Below, one piece after another: positions 2,534 through 20,652 of a stretch of DNA of 26,612 nt (position 1 is the stretch's first letter; each line of letters begins with the position of its first letter). The position numbers were made by a program, and so were the translations under genes. Source of the stretch: a virus (taxonomy: Duplodnaviria > Heunggongvirae > Uroviricota > Caudoviricetes). The DNA lies in the IMG/VR virus record IMGVR_UViG_2541047923_000008; one strand, 5' to 3'. The notes under the pieces were generated by a model, which was not told the DNA's origin, did not search any database, and worked only from the letters and a program-made list of their open reading frames with translations.

Positions 2534-2929
2534 TTATTGCATTCTGGCCAGGCCGCGCTCTGTCATTTCAGCTGCCACACCGGCAGAGACACGGAACGCC
2601 GTTCCCGGCAGCACAAATGCCACAGCCTCATCCCGCGTGGCGTGAAGTGCATCAGTATGCAGCGTCACCAGTGCCACAACCGTGACCAGATCAGCCGTAT
2701 CAGTCACGGTATCCGGCTGCGCTGATACAACCTCATTTTCATGTCCGGTCAGCACATTTTCCGGGCTGAGAGGGGTATCCTGACCGGCAGTGTCGCCCGT
2801 GTCATCAAGCTCTTCTTCCAGCTCTGCCACACGGAGCGCCAGTTCTTCTTTCGTCCCCGTCAGGCTGATATCACGGTTCAGTTGTTCACCCAGCGAGCGG
2901 AGACGGGCAATCAGTTCATCTTTCGTCAT
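2534..2929 (-). CDS. FI: DNA packaging/head completion protein gpFI
   Basis: ORF 2534..2968; from the internal Met (MTKDELIARLRSLGEQLNRD...) it matches lambda gpFI; GGAGGAG Shine-Dalgarno just upstream of the ATG at 2927-2929. Confidence 0.85.
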   Translation of the reverse strand: MTKDELIARLRSLGEQLNRDISLTGTKEELALRVAELEEELDDTGDTAGQDTPLSPENVLTGHENEVVSAQPDTVTDTADLVTVVALVTLHTDALHATRDEAVAFVLPGTAFRVSAGVAAEMTERGLARMQ

Positions 2930-2950
2930 GGACTCCTCCACAGAGAGAAA

Positions 2951-2968
2951 ATGGCCCCGAAGGGCCAT
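2951..2968 (-). terminator. GC-rich hairpin (ATGGCCC-CGAA-GGGCCAT) between E stop and FI start; possible attenuator or mRNA-stability element
   Basis: Perfect 7-bp stem with a tetraloop; on the minus strand it is followed by a U-rich run (TTTCTCTCT). Confidence 0.3.
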
Positions 2969-2970
2969 GA

Positions 2971-3996
2971 TTACGCCAGTTGTACGGACACGAACGCATC
3001 AGGGTCAGCCAGCAGCATCAGCGGTGCTGACTGAATCATGGTGAACTCACGCGCCGGATCGCCGGTGGTCACCCAGTTTTTCGGGTAGCGGGCAGAGGCG
3101 TTAATACCTTCGCGCTGTGCGTCCGCATCCTGAATGCAGCCATAGGTGCGCAGACCGCGTGCCTGAGTGTTCCCCAGCACCATCGTGTTGTCCGGCAGGA
3201 AGTTCTTTTTGACGTCGTTTTCCACGTACTGTCCGGAATACACGACGATCGCCGTATCGCCATACATCCCCTTATAGGACACCGCTTCGCCCAGGTCTTT
3301 TACCGCTGTCTCCAGCTCGGAATTAGAGCCGCGACGGGTATCCAGCTTCTCCTTGACGGCTTTGAAGGAACGGAACAGCGCCCAGCCTTTCGGATCAAAC
3401 ACGATGATATTCACCACGCCGCTGGCGTTCAGCGCGTAGGCTTCGATATCGTCGGTCGGGTCATACGTGGACTTGTCACGCTTGCTCCACTCCGTACCAC
3501 CGGACTGTGTGATGTTGTTCGCCGCACTGCGGCCCATATCCACTTCAACCGGATCGAAGGCTTCACCGGTCATGGTGTATTTGCCCTTAAGCACGGCAGA
3601 AACTGCCTGCATCTCTTCGACCTGAGCAATGGCCAGCTCTTCGTCTCGCATGTTCTGCATGATGATGCGACGGCGGCGGTAAGCCGGGTCCGCCAGATTC
3701 TGTGGATCTTCATCCGGCAGGCGACGCAGGGTCATCTGCGGATTCACCTCATGCTTGGGTTTGACATATCCCGGTGTAAATTCAGAGGTGGAGCCGCCAC
3801 GGGATCGGATAACCTCACCGGAAACAATCGGCGAAACGTACAGCGCCATGTTTACCAGTCCCGGAATTTGTGAGAGATAGACTTTCTCCGTGGTGAAGGG
3901 ATAGCTCTCACGGAAAAAGAGACGCAGAAACAGCGGATCAAACTTAAATTTCTTCTCATTTGCCGCCAGCAGCTGGGCGGTTGTGTACATCGACAT
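2971..3996 (-). CDS. E: Major capsid protein gpE
   Basis: 341-aa ORF MSMYTTAQLLAANEKKFKFDPLFLRLFF... matches lambda gpE in length and sequence. Confidence 0.95.
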   Translation of the reverse strand: MSMYTTAQLLAANEKKFKFDPLFLRLFFRESYPFTTEKVYLSQIPGLVNMALYVSPIVSGEVIRSRGGSTSEFTPGYVKPKHEVNPQMTLRRLPDEDPQNLADPAYRRRRIIMQNMRDEELAIAQVEEMQAVSAVLKGKYTMTGEAFDPVEVDMGRSAANNITQSGGTEWSKRDKSTYDPTDDIEAYALNASGVVNIIVFDPKGWALFRSFKAVKEKLDTRRGSNSELETAVKDLGEAVSYKGMYGDTAIVVYSGQYVENDVKKNFLPDNTMVLGNTQARGLRTYGCIQDADAQREGINASARYPKNWVTTGDPAREFTMIQSAPLMLLADPDAFVSVQLA

Positions 3997-11916: not shown

Positions 11917-12122
11917 TTCATTTTCACTTTCTTAAATCTAACGACAGATGGCTAACATTTAAGTATTGTGAAATATTATCAAATGTAATCATCATTGATT
12001 TACAAAAGATACATTTTGCCCCGAAAGGATTTCTGTCAGAAACATCAAAAGATGATGTTCTATACTGAGAACCATGGCAACACGGGCATCTAAAGTGAAT
12101 ATGGTTTGTAATATTTTCTACC

Positions 12123-12335
12123 TCAAAGTGCCACTACATGAACAGCTGCAGGGCCTTTAGGTCCGTTCTCAATACCAAATTCGACTTCCTGATTCTCAGT
12201 TAACGTTTTGAAATCGTTGCTCTGAATAGCTGAGAAATGCACAAACACATCTTTGCTACCATCTTTCGGCGTGATGAAACCAAAACCTTTTTCAGGGTTA
12301 AACCATTTCACTAAACCAGTCATTTTGTTAGACAT
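12123..12335 (-). CDS. Cold-shock protein, CspA family (CspI/CspB-like)
   Basis: [38 protein letters not shown]... contains the RNP1 motif KGFGFI and RNP2-like VFVHF of the cold-shock domain; about 360 nt of non-coding sequence upstream, consistent with the long csp 5' UTR. Confidence 0.85.
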
Positions 12336-12698
12336 CATTATTACCTTTTGAAGAAGTTAGCCCTTGGGCAGAATGGTCCGAAAAAAAATATCAGAGAGAA
12401 AAACCAACAAGAAAATCTCAAGAGGTACAAATAATAAAATTATAACAATGACTGCTTCAGATAATTTTGTAACAAACCAGAACACCATTAACGCATGATT
12501 AACCAACCATAGCAAGGATTACTTTTGTAAAGAAAAACACACGAATGAAACAATAGCTTTATTTATTAATAAAACGTGTCATTCTGTCTAATGACCTTTT
12601 ATCTTACCCTTAAGATTTCAAGGATTTTGACTCATGGAAGAGTCCTTTTTATTTAAATTTCACATTCAGCGCTAAAAATAATCCGATTTAATATTAAT

Positions 12699-13726
<1,028 letters not shown>

Positions 13727-13839
13727 GGATATTTATCAGGATTTATCGGCTTCAAATCCCCGGATATGTTAAATCTTACCTCACCAGTGATGGGCACTGG
13801 CGGGAGGAGGATGTCAATCTGATAAACACAGAGGTGACT

Positions 13840-14100
13840 ATGGATTACACAAATCTACCAAAACAAACTTTTGCTGATTTAATCGCACTCAGGCAAGCAG
13901 TCGTAGCTCTAATCAACTTGTTGCCGGAGAAGGAAAAGGAATTAGTTAAAGCGCTTCTTAACAGAACTGCCGCCGATTTTTCATCATATCCACTGACAGA
14001 TGACCTTGCGGACCTTCCTGAATTAATTGCAGCGTCCGCCATTAAGCTTACTGAAGAGATTTACCCTCCTCAAAAATCTTCACAAAATTCCTGCGAGTAA
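13840..14100 (+). CDS. Orphan 86-aa protein of unknown function, inside the lysis cassette on the opposite strand
   Basis: ORF 13834..14100; ATG at 13840 preceded by AGAGG (5-nt spacer); followed directly by a strong intrinsic terminator; no recognisable motifs, acidic and helical-looking. Confidence 0.5.
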   Translation: MDYTNLPKQTFADLIALRQAVVALINLLPEKEKELVKALLNRTAADFSSYPLTDDLADLPELIAASAIKLTEEIYPPQKSSQNSCE

Positions 14101-14118
14101 CTTCAATGCAATAATCGT

Positions 14119-14154
14119 AAAACGCCGCAAACTGCTCATCGCGGCGTTTTTTTT
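14119..14154 (+). terminator. Rho-independent terminator (CGCCGC stem, 12-nt loop, T8 tract)
   Basis: AAAACGCCGC-loop-GCGGCGTTTTTTTT immediately after the stop of the 13840..14100 gene. Confidence 0.6.
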
Positions 14155-14348
14155 CATCTTCAGAAGGGATCAGCACCGACAATTTTTTATTCAGATCAGC
14201 GACGCTGCCCTCCAGTTTTTCAATGGGCGATTCAATATCATCTTTTTCTGACCGCAATGCCGTCGGTGGCGTCTTCAGAGAACCAGTAGATGATATGACC
14301 TTTATATACTCACTATAGCATTGGTGGGATATTCCAGAGGAGGTCATC

Positions 14349-15482
14349 ATGCATTCGGAAAATATTGCGGCTTACGTCGGGCTGGATGTGCATAAAGAAA
14401 CGTTGGCGGTTGCTATTGCTGCACCTGAACGGCTTGGCGAAGTTCGTTATTATGGTACGATTAACAACGAAGCCCAGGCTGTACGTCGATTATTTCAGAA
14501 ATTGCAGGGACTTTACGGAAACATTCTTTCCTGCTATGAGGCTGGCCCCTGTGGTTTTGGGCTATATCATCAACTCACAGCGATGAATATAAAATGCCAG
14601 GTTATTGCCCCTTCCCGCATACCAAAATCACCGACAGACAGAATCAAAAATGATCATCGGGACGCAATTTCTCTCGCCAGGTTACTGCGGGCTGGAGAAC
14701 TTACCCCTGTCTGGATCCCTGACCTGACTCATGAAGCTATGCGGGATCTAATCAGAGCCCGTGCAGCAGCTAAACGAGACAGCAGAGTTGCCCGACAGCG
14801 AATTCTGAGCATGCTATTGCGAACAGACAAACATTATGCAGGAAAGCACTGGACAGGAAAACATCGAACCTGGTTAGCTAATCAATCATTTAGTCAGCCA
14901 TCTCAACAGATTGCTTTTCAACACTATTGTCAAAGTCTGGAGCAGATTGAAGATCGCATACTTCAACTCGACCAGGAAATATCTCGCCTGTTACCTGAGT
15001 GGTCTCTGTGCAATCTGGTCTGCCAGTTGCAGGCTCTTAAAGGTGTTGGTCAGCTAATTGCAATAACTCTGGTTGCTGAACTGGGTGATTTTTCGCGATT
15101 TTCCAATCCCAAACAGCTCATGGCTTTTCTGGGACTGGTGCCAGGTGAATATTCCAGTGGAAACAGTATTCGTCCCAGAGGAATAACAAAAGTTGGAAAC
15201 AGCGAACTGAGACGTCTGCTTTACGAAGCCGCCTGGTCTTATCGTACACCTGCAAAAGTTGGGGCATGGCTTATATATTACCGACCGGACTCTGTAACAC
15301 AATATTCCAAAGATATTGCATGGAAAGCTCAACAACGATTGTGTTCTCGTTACCGAAGTCTGACAGCAAAAGGGAAAAAATCACAAGTAGCCATTACGGC
15401 GGTGGCTCGTGAGTTGACTGGATTTATGTGGGATATTGCACTTGCTGCCCAATCATCATTCAGTCAGCAGAAGCAAAATTAA
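14349..15482 (+). CDS. IS110-family (DEDD) transposase/recombinase
   Basis: 377-aa ORF; N-terminal VGLDVHKETLAVAI motif typical of the IS110-family DEDD domain and C-terminal helix-hairpin-helix-like region (LKGVGQLIAITLVAELGDFSRF); strong GAGGAGG Shine-Dalgarno. Confidence 0.85.
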   Translation: MHSENIAAYVGLDVHKETLAVAIAAPERLGEVRYYGTINNEAQAVRRLFQKLQGLYGNILSCYEAGPCGFGLYHQLTAMNIKCQVIAPSRIPKSPTDRIKNDHRDAISLARLLRAGELTPVWIPDLTHEAMRDLIRARAAAKRDSRVARQRILSMLLRTDKHYAGKHWTGKHRTWLANQSFSQPSQQIAFQHYCQSLEQIEDRILQLDQEISRLLPEWSLCNLVCQLQALKGVGQLIAITLVAELGDFSRFSNPKQLMAFLGLVPGEYSSGNSIRPRGITKVGNSELRRLLYEAAWSYRTPAKVGAWLIYYRPDSVTQYSKDIAWKAQQRLCSRYRSLTAKGKKSQVAITAVARELTGFMWDIALAAQSSFSQQKQN

Positions 15483-15484
15483 AC

Positions 15485-15655
15485 CCTGAAGCAGTCAGAC
15501 ACGGAATGAGTGATCCTCGTAAAAGAATTCAGGGAAGCCAGAATGCGCTAATACCTGCACGTAGAAAGAGGCCAGCTCACTGCGTAAATCGTCATGGGGC
15601 TAAAATCCCCGAATAAGAGTTTGTAAAATCCAAGATACAGTCTGACTGTTTCAGG
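15485..15655 (+). ncRNA. Candidate structured non-coding RNA closed by a 16-bp inverted repeat immediately 3' of the transposase; possible IS1111-type guide (bridge/seek) RNA
   Basis: CCTGAAGCAGTCAGAC at 15485-15500 pairs with GTCTGACTGTTTCAGG at 15640-15655 (15 Watson-Crick pairs plus one G-U) enclosing about 139 nt. Confidence 0.35.
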
Positions 15656-15710
15656 TTCTTTAATCCGCGATATAACGAAGCTCCCGGAGCTGCGTAAGGT
15701 CTTTTTGGGC

Positions 15711-16046
15711 TTAATATTTGACAAAGGTCATAAGAATTCTTCCTGGTAGCTTTCCTTTGTAGGTTATCCACACATTCTGCGCCTCTAAAATTACGGGGCG
15801 CTTTTCCGGCGACTGCTCATCCCCTTCACATAACCCGGCAGCAACATCCAGGAAGACCTGTCTGATGCTCCTTCTGGCTGCTGCCTCATAAAACTCCAGC
15901 GCGGCACCTTCAACACGGTCCAGCGAGATGTCCAGGTCAAAAATTTCGCCGTCAAAGCGTTTTTTGTCCCGTAACGCTAAAGTTACCGTAACTTTATTCT
16001 CAAAATTGCGGATCCCTTTCACAATCAGTTCATAGTTTTGAGTCAT
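15711..16046 (-). CDS. YdfR-like small protein between holin and endolysin; the C-terminus may be altered by the adjacent insertion
   Basis: 111-aa ORF starting 4 nt after the holin stop (MTQNYELIVKGIRNFENKVTVTLALRDKKRFDGEIFDLD...); resembles, from memory, the E. coli Qin-prophage YdfR encoded between essQ and rrrQ. Confidence 0.5.
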   Translation of the reverse strand: MTQNYELIVKGIRNFENKVTVTLALRDKKRFDGEIFDLDISLDRVEGAALEFYEAAARRSIRQVFLDVAAGLCEGDEQSPEKRPVILEAQNVWITYKGKLPGRILMTFVKY

Positions 16047-16050
16047 TGAA

Positions 16051-16266
16051 TTACTCTCCCCGTGCAGCCTTACGCTTGTCTTCTCTGATTTTGAAGTACA
16101 GATTTGTCAGATAAGTCAGGAAGCCCAGAACCAGACTCCCCAGTACACCAATCGCAGCCCACTGTGACGGACTGACCTGATCAAGCCACTGTAAAAACCA
16201 GTAGCCAGCACTGCCTGCGGAGGTGCCGTAGGCAATGCCCGTTGAAATTTTGTCCATGGATTTCAT
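16051..16266 (-). CDS. Class II pinholin, phage 21 S-type, with dual-start motif MKSMDK
   Basis: 71-aa [74 protein letters not shown] matches my memory of S21; two transmembrane segments; GGAGGTG Shine-Dalgarno. Confidence 0.9.
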
Positions 16267-16324: not shown

Positions 16325-16350
16325 TGAAAAGAAAAACCCGCAAAAGCGGG
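16325..16350 (-). terminator. Rho-independent terminator on the minus strand (CCCGC-TTTT-GCGGG plus T-tract) between the tRNA cluster and the holin
   Basis: Plus strand reads GAAAAACCCGCAAAAGCGGG; on the minus strand the hairpin is followed by TTTTTCTTTTC. Confidence 0.55.
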
Positions 16351-16557
16351 CGAAACGATATATACAGTAAGGGAAGCACTCTATCCAACAAACCACCCAC
16401 AGTTAATCGGAATAAAAGCAGAGTGCTTATGAATGATCGCCTGCCCGAAGGTTAGTATTTCTGCACAGCAATTTTGCAAAAAAAGCGATCATTCATAACT
16501 TAAACGTCTTTCAGTCACTCCGGGATTTCCCATCATCGCAGACTGAAAGACTCTAAC

Positions 16558-16632
<75 letters not shown>

Positions 16633-16635
16633 ATA

Positions 16636-16711
<76 letters not shown>

Positions 16712-16713
16712 AC

Positions 16714-16790
16714 TGGACCGCCACCGGGGACTCGAACCTCGCACACTCAACTTAAAGGGTTGACGCTCTTTCCTGATGAGCTAGTGGCGG
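16714..16790 (-). tRNA. tRNA-like gene, possibly tRNA-Lys (UUU) or a degenerate tRNA pseudogene
   Basis: Reverse complement CCGCCACTAGCTCATCAGGAAAGAGCGTCAACCCTTTAAGTTGAGTGTGCGAGGTTCGAGTCCCCGGTGGCGGTCCA; good acceptor, D and anticodon stems, but C at position 33 and one T-stem mismatch. Confidence 0.4.
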
Positions 16791-16791
16791 C

Positions 16792-16867
16792 TGGTGGCCC
16801 TTGCTGGATTTGAACCAGCGACCTGGCGATTATGAGTCGCTCGCTCTCACCACTGAGCTAAAGGGCC
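16792..16867 (-). tRNA. tRNA with anticodon CAU (Ile2/lysidine-type or Met), ileZ-like as in lambdoid Stx phages
   Basis: Reverse complement GGCCCTTTAGCTCAGTGGTGAGAGCGAGCGACTCATAATCGCCAGGTCGCTGGTTCAAATCCAGCAAGGGCCACCA; resembles E. coli ileX-type tRNA as recalled; anticodon loop CUCAUAA. Confidence 0.7.
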
Positions 16868-16972
16868 GGGCGCAGGATAATAACGTTACGAAATCAATGT
16901 TGCAAGCATTCAAAAATCACCCTTATCTCCTCCACTAGCGCATTCACCATGTCTATCCGAGATAAGTGGCAC

Positions 16973-17003
16973 AAAAAACCCGCTTGTGGGCGGGTTTTGT
17001 TTG
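16973..17003 (-). terminator. Bidirectional intrinsic terminator; candidate tR'-like terminator of a short late-promoter transcript
   Basis: AAAAAACCCGCTTGTGGGCGGGTTTTGTTTG: 5-bp GC stem, 6-nt loop, flanked by an A-tract and a T-tract; about 45-65 nt downstream of the predicted late promoter. Confidence 0.55.
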
Positions 17004-17042
17004 CTTTTGCCATCACGTACAAAATCGGCAAAATATCAGATT

Positions 17043-17078
17043 TGCATGAAATATATGCCTTTCAATCTACTTTTGCAA
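17043..17078 (-). promoter_or_regulatory. Candidate late promoter (pR'-like): -35 TTGCAA, 17-bp spacer, -10 TATATT on the minus strand
   Basis: Minus strand reads TTGCAAaagtagattgaaaggcaTATATT; overlaps the 3' end of the Q-like gene, the position of pR' in lambdoid phages. Confidence 0.5.
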
Positions 17079-17757
17079 TACTTTGCTTTGAAAATGCCGC
17101 CTTTTGTTTTGAACGTGTTCTCATTACAAACAATAAAGCCTCACTATCAAGTCGGTGAAAAATGTGTTTCATTGCAACCCAGTGACGAGTAAATGTTTTG
17201 GACCAGTTTTTAGTTGTCACTCCCGCCAGTAATGCCAGCTCCTGGTATTCATAACCTTCCCCACCAAAAAGTTCTGCTTTTACTGCCTGCGCCGCCAGCC
17301 AGATTAATTTTTTCAGGCGTTCCTGCGTTTTCCCTGCAATTTTTCTGGTACCGGATTGAGTATTAAATTCATTCCACGCCCACTGTGTTATCGCGATCTG
17401 ATATTCCCAACAAATACTCCCGCTGTAACACCACAACAACCAGGCTTTATGATGTTCTTCAAGAGACAGAACAGCCCGCCGCCACGATGATGTCGAAAAC
17501 TCAACCGGACTGACCAGAGGAATTGACGTCCCCTTCGCCAGCGATTGCTTTCCCGGGATTGGTGGATTATCCCGCGTTATCATTTTTCCAGTCACTTCAT
17601 CGCGGTACCGGATTTTTTTTCGCCTGTAACGCCCTGTATCGAACATGGCATTCTCTTGCCAGGCTTCAAGCTGACCTTTTGTTGCCCCACTCAAATCAGC
17701 GGTGGCGATAATGAGCTGCTCACGCACAAACTGTAAATACTGGTTATTCATGCGCAC
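17062..17757 (-). CDS. Putative late-gene antiterminator (Q-like)
   Basis: 231-aa ORF immediately upstream of the candidate late promoter/terminator pair, tRNAs and holin, and downstream of rusA; assignment is by synteny, no sequence similarity to lambda Q. Confidence 0.5.
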   Translation of the reverse strand: MRMNNQYLQFVREQLIIATADLSGATKGQLEAWQENAMFDTGRYRRKKIRYRDEVTGKMITRDNPPIPGKQSLAKGTSIPLVSPVEFSTSSWRRAVLSLEEHHKAWLLWCYSGSICWEYQIAITQWAWNEFNTQSGTRKIAGKTQERLKKLIWLAAQAVKAELFGGEGYEYQELALLAGVTTKNWSKTFTRHWVAMKHIFHRLDSEALLFVMRTRSKQKAAFSKQSIAKVD

Positions 17758-20281: not shown

Positions 20282-20437
20282 TTACTCCTCAGGTTCGTAA
20301 GCTGTGAAGACAGCGACCTCCGTCTGGCCGGTTCGGATTCGTACCTCGCAGAGGTCTTTCCTCGTTACCAGTGCCGTCACAATGACGGTTAAACAGATGA
20401 CGATCAGGGCGATTAACATCGCCTTTTGCTGCTTCAT
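20282..20437 (-). CDS. hok: Hok-family membrane toxin (type I toxin-antitoxin)
   Basis: 51-aa product MKQQKAMLIALIVICLTVIVTALVTRKDLCEVRIRTGQTEVAVFTAYEPEE matches my memory of HokD/RelF; the ORF track shows a 19-codon in-frame upstream extension. Confidence 0.85.
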   Translation of the reverse strand: MKQQKAMLIALIVICLTVIVTALVTRKDLCEVRIRTGQTEVAVFTAYEPEE

Positions 20438-20652
20438 AGCCTGCTTCTCCTTGCCTTTCGGCACGTAAGAGGCTAACCTAGATTTGCCGTTCATAGATTG
20501 AGCCTCAGATTAATGTTAAGCGTCTTGCAGGACGCGTAATGTTAACTGGGGCTTTTCTCTATCTGCCTTTGGTGTTCATGCCTGAGGCAGATAGCCTCAA
20601 GCACCCGCAGCAATTCTACTTAACTCACGTCACCTCGCCAATATAAAATCAA

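Follow-up and report, generated by a model that had tools for sequence, protein, structure and literature searches.

The segment between positions 17078 and 16973 (minus strand) of the analyzed window, a 26,612-nucleotide stretch of a lambdoid prophage with the late region on the minus strand, is very probably the module that controls the late genes in a lambdoid prophage of the phage 82 type. The module consists of a promoter (pR') that overlaps the 3' end of the gene for the antiterminator Q, a short leader with a sigma70-dependent pause element, and an intrinsic terminator (tR'). An earlier note, made from the sequence alone, had interpreted a promoter, a short leader and a terminator behind Q as such a module, and this interpretation is supported by the assignment of Q to the Q82 family, by the presence of the phage 82 landmarks and by conservation in eight bacterial genera. 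The elements of the module, their homology to those of phage 82, their conservation, and the conserved position of the terminator can all be read from comparisons at the sequence level. This is a known, well-studied element, the textbook late-gene switch of a phage 82-like Escherichia coli prophage; the residual novelty lies in the recognition of the Salmonella RNA IsrJ as an 82-type late leader, in a possible small RNA (sRNA) role in E. coli, and in the structured leader that precedes a second terminator.

The 229-aa Q protein is a full-length match to the Pfam family PF06323 (E = 8e-92, profile positions 1-217 of 220) and shows 77% identity, without gaps, to Q of phage 82, and 74% identity to Q of phage 434. 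The Q82 family (PF06323) is one of three unrelated families of Q proteins and the only one for which no structure has been solved (PMC9388147); consistent with this, a structure search with Q produced a single weak, irrelevant match and no related solved structure. On the minus strand of the window, the genes are arranged in the order DUF968/HNH gene, rusA, the 229-aa Q, four tRNAs, holin, and a DUF1327 gene (ydfR-like), followed by an IS110-family transposase on the opposite strand and then by lysozyme and Rz. The IS110-family element interrupts the late operon between the ydfR-like gene and R; the segment 15734-13754 of the window, which carries the transposase, is absent from the 99.8% identical phage vB_EcoS-689R5. 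Because of this insertion in the lysis cassette, the prophage may be defective, although Q and pR' look intact. The features of the region, all on the minus strand, are:

17062..17751, minus strand: gene for the Q antiterminator, Q82 family, 229 aa (Pfam PF06323)
17073..17078, minus strand: -35 hexamer of pR', TTGCAA, within the final Q codons (promoter scan)
17056..17072, minus strand: 17-bp spacer with the Q stop codon and the conserved pattern AA-N4-A-N-T-N-AA (alignment)
17050..17055, minus strand: -10 hexamer of pR', TATATT (promoter scan)
17043, minus strand: presumptive transcription start, +1 = A (7 nt past the -10 hexamer)
17030..17038, minus strand: putative sigma70-dependent pause element, extended -10-like TGaTATTTT, +6 to +14 (conservation and the published phage 82 description)
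17018..17029, minus strand: GCC at +15-17, AT-rich +18-25 and predicted pause site at +25/+26 (17019/17018) (sequence compared with PMC5001585)
17005..17033, minus strand: predicted leader hairpin 1, +11 to +39 (RNA fold, -7.2 kcal/mol)
16973..16998, minus strand: predicted intrinsic terminator tR', 9-bp stem, 6-nt loop, U6 (fold, -12.5 kcal/mol)
16973..17043, minus strand: predicted short pR'-tR' RNA, ~71 nt, corresponding to the short late RNA of phage 82 and to Salmonella IsrJ (sub-threshold Rfam matches)
16877..16905, minus strand: second promoter-like element, TTGCAA-17-TATTAT, the -10 being followed by a GC-rich stretch (promoter scan)
16558..16867, minus strand: four tRNA genes with anticodons CAT (ileZ-like), TTT (argN-like body), TGT and TCC (ARAGORN, Rfam, ileZ/argN alignment)
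16352..16557, minus strand: highly structured spacer with three long predicted hairpins (fold)
16326..16351, minus strand: second predicted intrinsic terminator, before the holin gene (-11.5 kcal/mol, z = -4.3)
16051..16266, minus strand: gene for a holin of the phage 21 S type, first of the late protein genes (Pfam PF04971, E = 1.4e-35)

The promoter TTGCAA-17-TATATT was identified at 17078..17050 on the minus strand both by a promoter scan and by direct reading. It was described previously as near-consensus; the promoter is indeed present as described, but the match is only moderate, with 9 of the 12 positions agreeing with the sigma-70 consensus. The proposed overlap with the end of Q is evident, the -35 hexamer being located in the last Q codons and the Q stop codon (17064-17062) inside the spacer. 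Promoter-like matches are common by chance (10 were found between positions 14000 and 20000 compared to 7.1 +/- 2.9 in shuffled sequences), so that the hexamers alone prove nothing. With +1 at A17043, the transcript begins with AAATCTGATATTTTGCCGATTTTGTA and the bases +1 to +17 are AAATCTGATATTTTGCC; in this numbering GCC falls at +15-17, G at +24 and U at +25, in agreement with the published 82 pR'. The Rfam alignments of isrJ and isrK with the window begin at 17046 and 17045, respectively, near this start. We predict that the late transcript of this prophage family starts at this promoter.

The phage 82 pR' has been studied in the Roberts and Hochschild laboratories. We compared the window with the positional descriptions in the text of PMC5001585 and with a prophage that encodes a Q identical to that of phage 82; such a prophage was sought because the deposited phage 82 record stops at the Q stop codon. 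The 82 pR' contains an extended -10 element with a -10-like hexamer starting at +9, such that an insertion at +9 shifts all pause determinants; past the hexamer come GCC at +15-17, termed the 'discriminator', then an AT-rich segment that covers +18-25, and a natural U at +25, at the end of the pause (PMC5001585). In addition, a 1-nt insertion at +18 of the 82 pR' moves a G to the pause end (PMC5001585), which implies a G at +24 in the unmodified sequence. In the window, TG is found at +6/+7, TATTTT at +9-14, GCC at +15-17 and GATTTTGT at +18-25, with G at +24 and T at +25; every published landmark of the 82 pR' is thus matched, in the same numbering.

The prophage with the same Q (229/229 identical residues) was found in E. 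coli strain DAM, where the sequence behind Q reads TTGCAA-aactggattaaaaagca-TATATT-tcatat-AAATCTGATATTTTGCCAATGTTGTAC. Both hexamers and all bases from +1 to +17 are identical between this prophage and the window, and the differences comprise 5 of the 17 spacer bases along with positions +18 and +21. Taken together, the window contains a Q82-family gene directly upstream, a promoter with the phage 82 hexamers in the TTGCAA-17-TATATT arrangement at the 3' end of Q, the pause element at +6 to +14 with the ensuing GCC, AT-rich +18-25 segment, G+24 and U+25, and, shortly past the pause site, an intrinsic terminator; as in phage 82, the leader hairpin and the terminator are accommodated within about 75 nt. 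The module in the window differs from that of phage 82 in the 5 spacer bases, at +18 and +21, and in the sequences of hairpin 1 and of the terminator; furthermore, tR' and the holin gene are separated in the window by tRNA genes and by a second structured leader.

To examine conservation, Q82-family loci were collected from one genome per species, from annotated phages, and from IMG/VR (521 close relatives). The resulting alignment includes 20 distinct loci, whose Q proteins range from 34 to 95% in identity; the genera represented are Escherichia, Citrobacter, Klebsiella, Raoultella, Buttiauxella, Enterobacter, Cronobacter and Hafnia. Invariant in all 20 loci are TTG and the three A of TTGCAAAA, A-11 of the -10 element, and the transcript bases T+4, G+7, T+9, A+10, T+14, G+15 and T+23; T-7, T+6, A+8 and T+11 are conserved in at least 90%. 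The conserved positions of the promoter and the pause element correspond to the bases recognized by sigma70 in -10 and extended -10 elements. Within the spacer, columns A12, A13 and A18 of the alignment are invariant, and T20, A22 and A23 are conserved in at least 90% of the loci. This conserved spacer pattern, AA-N4-A-N-T-N-AA, is a candidate Q-binding element (QBE); the QBE of phage 82 has been located within -31 to +30 of the 82 pR' (PMC4914094). A similar spacer is present in Hafnia phage yong2, where it is non-coding: the entire module of this phage lies 3' of the Q stop codon, and coding constraint therefore does not account for the conservation. In BLAST comparisons with phage 434 and with phages of Klebsiella and Enterobacter, the similarity to the window extends beyond the Q stop codon as far as about +11 to +15, a boundary that should be expected of a module evolving together with Q.

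The module is present in 1,258 of the 5,426 complete E. coli genomes, that is, in about a quarter of these, and E. coli strain SMS-3-5 is 100% identical to the window over 16960-17130. The phage and RefSeq E. coli records with matches that we examined annotate the Q gene only, and not the late-control element.

The terminator tR' reads, on the minus strand (16998-16973), AAAACCCGC-CCACAA-GCGGGUUUU-UU (-12.5 kcal/mol, z = -3.0), and its hairpin (16998-16975) spans positions +46 to +69 from the start at 17043. The terminator scanner returned only the plus-strand version of this element and missed the minus-strand one because four A-U pairs are taken into the stem, leaving too few T residues. The plus-strand hairpin is somewhat more stable (-14.2 kcal/mol), with an interrupted U-tract (GUUUGCUUUU). 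Of the strong bidirectional terminator that had been proposed, the minus-strand component stands, at -12.5 kcal/mol; termination in both directions is plausible, but the U-tract on the plus strand is interrupted. A strict terminator is found on the same strand at +15 to +140 in 17 of 21 loci, compared to a background of 0.064 per 125 nt, and the remaining 4 loci contain imperfect versions. When 13 leaders were aligned, RNAalifold recovered the terminator stem, with compensatory changes in 5 of the 9 pairs. In the phage 434 record, a terminator is annotated about 50 nt past the 'Q82-like' gene.

The leader upstream of the terminator includes hairpin 1. Single-sequence folds predict a hairpin at this position in 15 of the 15 long-leader relatives, with three stem sequences, and about half of these hairpins are individually significant. 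RNAalifold, applied to +1 to +48 of the 15 relatives, did not recover a common hairpin 1, because stems of the GCC/GGC class and those of the GUCG/CGAC class are shifted relative to each other in the alignment; hairpin 1 is accordingly supported by its place in the Rfam isrJ consensus rather than by a covariation test of its own. The start at 17043 and the terminator hairpin at +46 to +69 together predict a short RNA of ~71 nt, in line with the length estimated in the earlier note.

This short RNA has a likely counterpart among the named RNAs of Salmonella. In a permissive (sub-threshold) Rfam scan, isrJ (RF01393) aligned over its full length with positions 16974-17046 of the window at 24.5 bits (E = 0.007), below the gathering score of 37, and isrK (RF01394) aligned, also full-length, with 16973-17045 at 22.7 bits, below the gathering score of 50. 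Six relatives in the 20-locus alignment exceed the isrJ gathering score, at 38-73 bits. In Gifsy-1, the gene order is antQ (STM2617, Q82 family), isrK with a P4 C4-like module, anrP, and then isrJ (100 bits); thus, the isrK-orf45-anrP module separates antQ from isrJ, and the true isrK is part of the P4 C4-like module inserted behind antQ. Immediately upstream of the Gifsy-1 isrJ, the sequence reads ATTGCAAAACTGGATTAA-aacggc-TATATT-ttatgt-AAATCTGATATC: here, ATTGCAAAACTGGATTAA is a remnant of the 3' end of an 82-type Q, and the 82-type promoter and pause element come next. The combination of this Q remnant and the 82-type promoter implies that IsrJ is the short late-promoter RNA of an 82-type module that was displaced by the insertion. 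We found no statement of this link between IsrJ and the 82-type late leader in the literature searched.

The RNA in the window occupies the same genomic position as the Gifsy-1 IsrJ and shares with it the promoter TTGCAA-17-TATATT, a transcript start with AAATCTGATAT, and the architecture of hairpin 1, A-rich linker and terminator; the Rfam isrJ consensus has the same layout, with a single-stranded 5' end in front of hairpin 1, and the A-rich linker and the terminator after it. The two RNAs differ in the stem of hairpin 1 (GCC/GGC in the window and GUCG/CGAC in IsrJ) and in the terminator sequences. IsrJ is ~74 nt long and is highly transcribed under all conditions in Salmonella lysogens (PMC7067206; PMC4825925). 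This expression pattern is indirect experimental support for the promoter being constitutive, and the terminator efficient, in this family. Short late-promoter RNAs are also produced by phages 21, phi80, 82 and P22 (PMC7547250).

These relationships raise the question of whether the main role of the element in the lysogen could be to produce a trans-acting, Hfq-binding sRNA, an E. coli counterpart of IsrJ and StxS, with antitermination being secondary; this reading is compatible with late-gene control, and we regard it as possible, if rather unlikely. In its favor, the module is homologous to that of IsrJ, which is listed in Rfam as an Hfq-binding RNA and is reported to be necessary for efficient invasion (PMC7067206); StxS, which is the pR'-tR' RNA in Stx phages, has been shown to function as an sRNA (PMC7547250); the lambda 6S RNA binds Hfq (bioRxiv 10.1101/2024.10.31.621285); and the RNA in the window ends with a terminator hairpin and a U-tract, and has an A-rich linker. 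However, the conserved 5' bases are fully accounted for by the pause element at the DNA level, and the middle part of the RNA diverges among the relatives. StxS itself resembles the RNA analyzed here in that it is a short RNA generated by constitutive termination behind Q in the lysogen, with tRNA genes located farther downstream within that late leader, but it comes with another Q family and another sequence, is processed from a 258-nt precursor, and has a demonstrated sRNA function. The more specific possibility, that the ~71-nt RNA is the E. coli IsrJ counterpart, that is, a constitutive, Hfq-binding, trans-acting sRNA in about a quarter of the E. coli genomes, with doubly used 5' bases AAAUCUGAUAU, appears to us slightly less probable still. 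If this were the case, AAAUCUGAUAU would function as a sigma70 pause element in the DNA and as a seed in the RNA, and the conserved hairpin 1 would contribute either to the sRNA scaffold or to the loading of Q82; the second option is of interest in that Q82 may work without the closed-nozzle mechanism employed by Q21 and Q-lambda.

Downstream of tR', the second promoter-like element ends 10 nt ahead of the first tRNA gene and matches the consensus in 9 of 12 positions, equal to pR'. The same element precedes ileZ in an Stx2 phage with a Q21-family Q (PF06530), and TTGCAG-17-TATTAT, with different spacers, precedes the same tRNA in the locus L006 and in PhiR47_1, whose Q belongs to PF03589; in those tRNA-bearing phages, a family-specific promoter and terminator are located directly behind Q. 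Given that the element travels with the tRNA module across Q families, the tRNA cluster looks self-contained, with its own promoter, and closed by the terminator at 16351-16336. Judging from this arrangement, the tRNAs are probably not strictly Q-dependent and may be expressed without Q. A literature search for a promoter of ileZ-argN-argO found none.

The second terminator, which had been proposed to lie between the tRNAs and the holin gene, is real: its hairpin (16351-16336), with a T-run extending to ~16326, is located between tRNA-Gly (16558) and the holin start (16266). The structured spacer together with this terminator folds at -80.9 kcal/mol (z = -5.5), and is shared with the late leader of HK639, with compensatory and G-U changes. 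A search for diverse copies of the spacer in E. coli genomes and IMG/VR yielded near-identical ones only, which leaves HK639 as the sole informative comparison.

The arrangement of these elements could be read differently, with the second element (16905-16877) as the true late promoter, the tRNAs as its leader and the hairpin at 16351-16336 as tR', in which case the hairpin at 16998-16975 would be a terminator of the early or the Q transcript, or a bidirectional insulator. The second element has the same score as pR' and is conserved, a terminator is present after the tRNAs, and the hairpin at 16998-16975 would also halt transcription from Q. Nevertheless, we consider this alternative highly improbable: the second element is not followed by a -10-like pause repeat, and the tRNA begins about 3-10 nt past its likely start; it is found behind three unrelated Q families (PF06323 here, PF06530 in the locus L107 and PF03589 in the locus L109), each with its own promoter and terminator behind Q; and the element at 17078-17030 is conserved with Q82-family genes in loci without any tRNAs. 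The second element was therefore rejected as the late promoter, on the grounds that it travels with the tRNA module and lacks the pause repeat. Finally, the notion that the hexamers of pR' are a chance match in the AT-rich 3' end of Q, so that only the terminator is functional, for which it can be said that promoter-like matches are no more common than in shuffled sequences, is practically untenable, because the composite motif (-35, N17, -10, N11, TGnTATnnT) has a single occurrence in the window and none in 100 shuffled sequences, the functional positions are conserved in eight genera, including a non-coding context, and the promoter is identical to the phage 82-type one.

For the late-gene control module, pausing, Q loading and Q-dependent read-through at this locus would follow the course known for phage 82. 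Host sigma70 RNA polymerase would start at pR', with +1 at 17043; the polymerase-bound sigma70 would then recognize TGaTATTTT at +6 to +14, causing a pause at about +25/+26. Without Q, the polymerase would resume transcription and stop at tR', releasing the ~71-nt RNA, which is predicted to consist of a single-stranded 5' end, hairpin 1, the A-rich linker and the terminator hairpin. On prophage induction, Q would accumulate and bind both the promoter-region DNA and the paused polymerase, and the Q-modified polymerase, now resistant to terminators, would continue past tR', the tRNAs and the second terminator to transcribe the holin, lysis and head genes.

The logic of this switch is the same as that of the lambda pR'-6S RNA-tR' arrangement, to which the element was originally likened: a promoter behind Q that is constitutively active, a pause close to the promoter that depends on sigma70, a short RNA ending at a terminator, and read-through into the genes for lysis and head proteins that requires Q. 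The details are different: the lambda Q belongs to PF03589, whereas the Q in the window belongs to the unrelated PF06323; the lambda pause element is located at +1 to +6, with the pause at +16/17, compared to +9 to +14 and +25 here; and the lambda RNA is 194 nt long compared to ~71 nt here. Hence the likeness to lambda holds at the level of function, but the geometry (pause at +25, ~71-nt RNA) is 82-like, and the element is a homologue of the phage 82 module rather than a member of the lambda type.

The importance of these observations is mainly for annotation. The two terminators would explain the expected silence of the tRNA, lysis and head genes until Q is made. For research on transcription, the alignment of the Q82-family loci serves as a map of naturally occurring mutations in the 82-type pause element and in a candidate Q82-binding site. 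Furthermore, the comparison with Gifsy-1 explains a named sRNA, the Salmonella IsrJ, as the short RNA made from the late promoter of an 82-type module.

Between tRNA-Gly and the holin gene lie 233 nt that fold, with an energy of -80.9 kcal/mol (z = -5.5), into three long hairpins followed by the second terminator of the late region.

RNA genes and signals of the late region
16352-16557, minus strand: structured spacer of three long hairpins, followed by the terminator at 16326-16351 (RNA fold)
16714-16790, minus strand: gene called tRNA-Lys, anticodon TTT, a homologue of argN/argO-type tRNA-Arg
16792-16867, minus strand: gene called tRNA-Met, anticodon CAT, matching ileZ
16877-16905, minus strand: promoter-like element TTGCAA-17-TATTAT with a GC-rich stretch 3' of the -10, directly 5' of the first tRNA
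17005-17033, minus strand: leader hairpin 1, +11 to +39 of the late transcript (RNA fold)
17073-17086, plus strand: TTGC-AATACT-TTGC, overlapping the -35 hexamer of the late promoter pR' (CII-site consensus)

An Rfam scan of the spacer (16352-16557, minus strand) produced no family match. Phage HK639 has a counterpart, 76.6% identical to the spacer of the window, in its late leader, where it is placed between the Q-like gene and the holin, immediately 5' of an annotated terminator. In hairpins A and B the differences between the two copies include compensatory and G-U changes, a pattern that fits an RNA made from the late strand. The spacer is present in 536 of the 5,426 E. coli genomes.

The identities of the first two tRNAs deserve comment. 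The aligned body of the “tRNA-Met” is identical to the ileZ of one Stx2 phage (alignment A3), within a wider tRNA region of about 91% identity, and therefore this gene more likely encodes a tRNA-Ile, an assignment based on the Stx-phage annotation and general knowledge; such a tRNA-Ile (CAT) would presumably read AUA once the anticodon C is modified. The homologues of the “tRNA-Lys” are argN/argO-type tRNA-Arg genes (TCT or TCG) found in Stx phages and in comparison locus L006. Its anticodon loop is CCTTTAA, in contrast to CTTCTAA in the argN/argO type (that is, U33C and C35U), and its Rfam score, 44 bits, is the lowest among the four tRNAs of the window; this may be an identity-switched or decaying tRNA. 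Behind three different Q families, the promoter-like element in front of the tRNAs is conserved alongside the tRNA module, which suggests that the tRNAs of the window could be expressed independently of Q.

Closer to the late promoter, GCC at +15-17 is overlapped by the 5' arm of leader hairpin 1. A hairpin occupies this site in all 15 of the 15 long-leader relatives, with three different stem sequences, whereas phage 434, L009, phiES15 and yong2 lack it and instead have the terminator at about +27 to +50. The plus-strand motif at the -35 matches the CII-site consensus, and the phage 434 record annotates such a site there as the antisense promoter paQ; the motif is present in only some relatives.

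Three more elements lie elsewhere in the window.

Elements outside the late leader
12077-12493, minus strand: cspA-type 5' UTR thermoregulator (Rfam, 107.5 bits)
13754-15734: IS110-family element, with the transposase at 14349-15482, plus strand (Pfam PF01548, PF02371)
20432-20606, minus strand: sok antitoxin RNA (Rfam, 111.7 bits)

The IS110-family element is inserted between a ydfR-like gene and the lysozyme gene R; phage vB_EcoS-689R5, otherwise 99.8% identical, lacks the segment. The cspA-type 5' UTR, located between Rz and the terminase genes, precedes a 71-aa ORF (12123-12338), presumably a cold-shock-like gene, and the sok match implies a hok/sok-type module.

In Salmonella Gifsy-1 (L108, locus positions 2907-3016), the region 5' of the RNA gene isrJ contains a remnant 82-type Q 3' end and an 82-type promoter. 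This arrangement points to insertion of another module: isrK, a C4-like element and anrP appear to have entered the Q gene at its 3' end, apparently shifting the late promoter downstream by about 900 bp. Among the Q82-family phages of Klebsiella and Enterobacter, four loci (L099, L100, L102, L103) carry tRNA clusters directly 3' of the pR'-tR' module of late promoter and terminator (Asn-Phe-Thr-Arg; Ile-Arg; Arg), and some Klebsiella phage loci (L098, L101, L104) have an STnc100 RNA at the corresponding site. Small RNA genes have repeatedly landed in the late leader.
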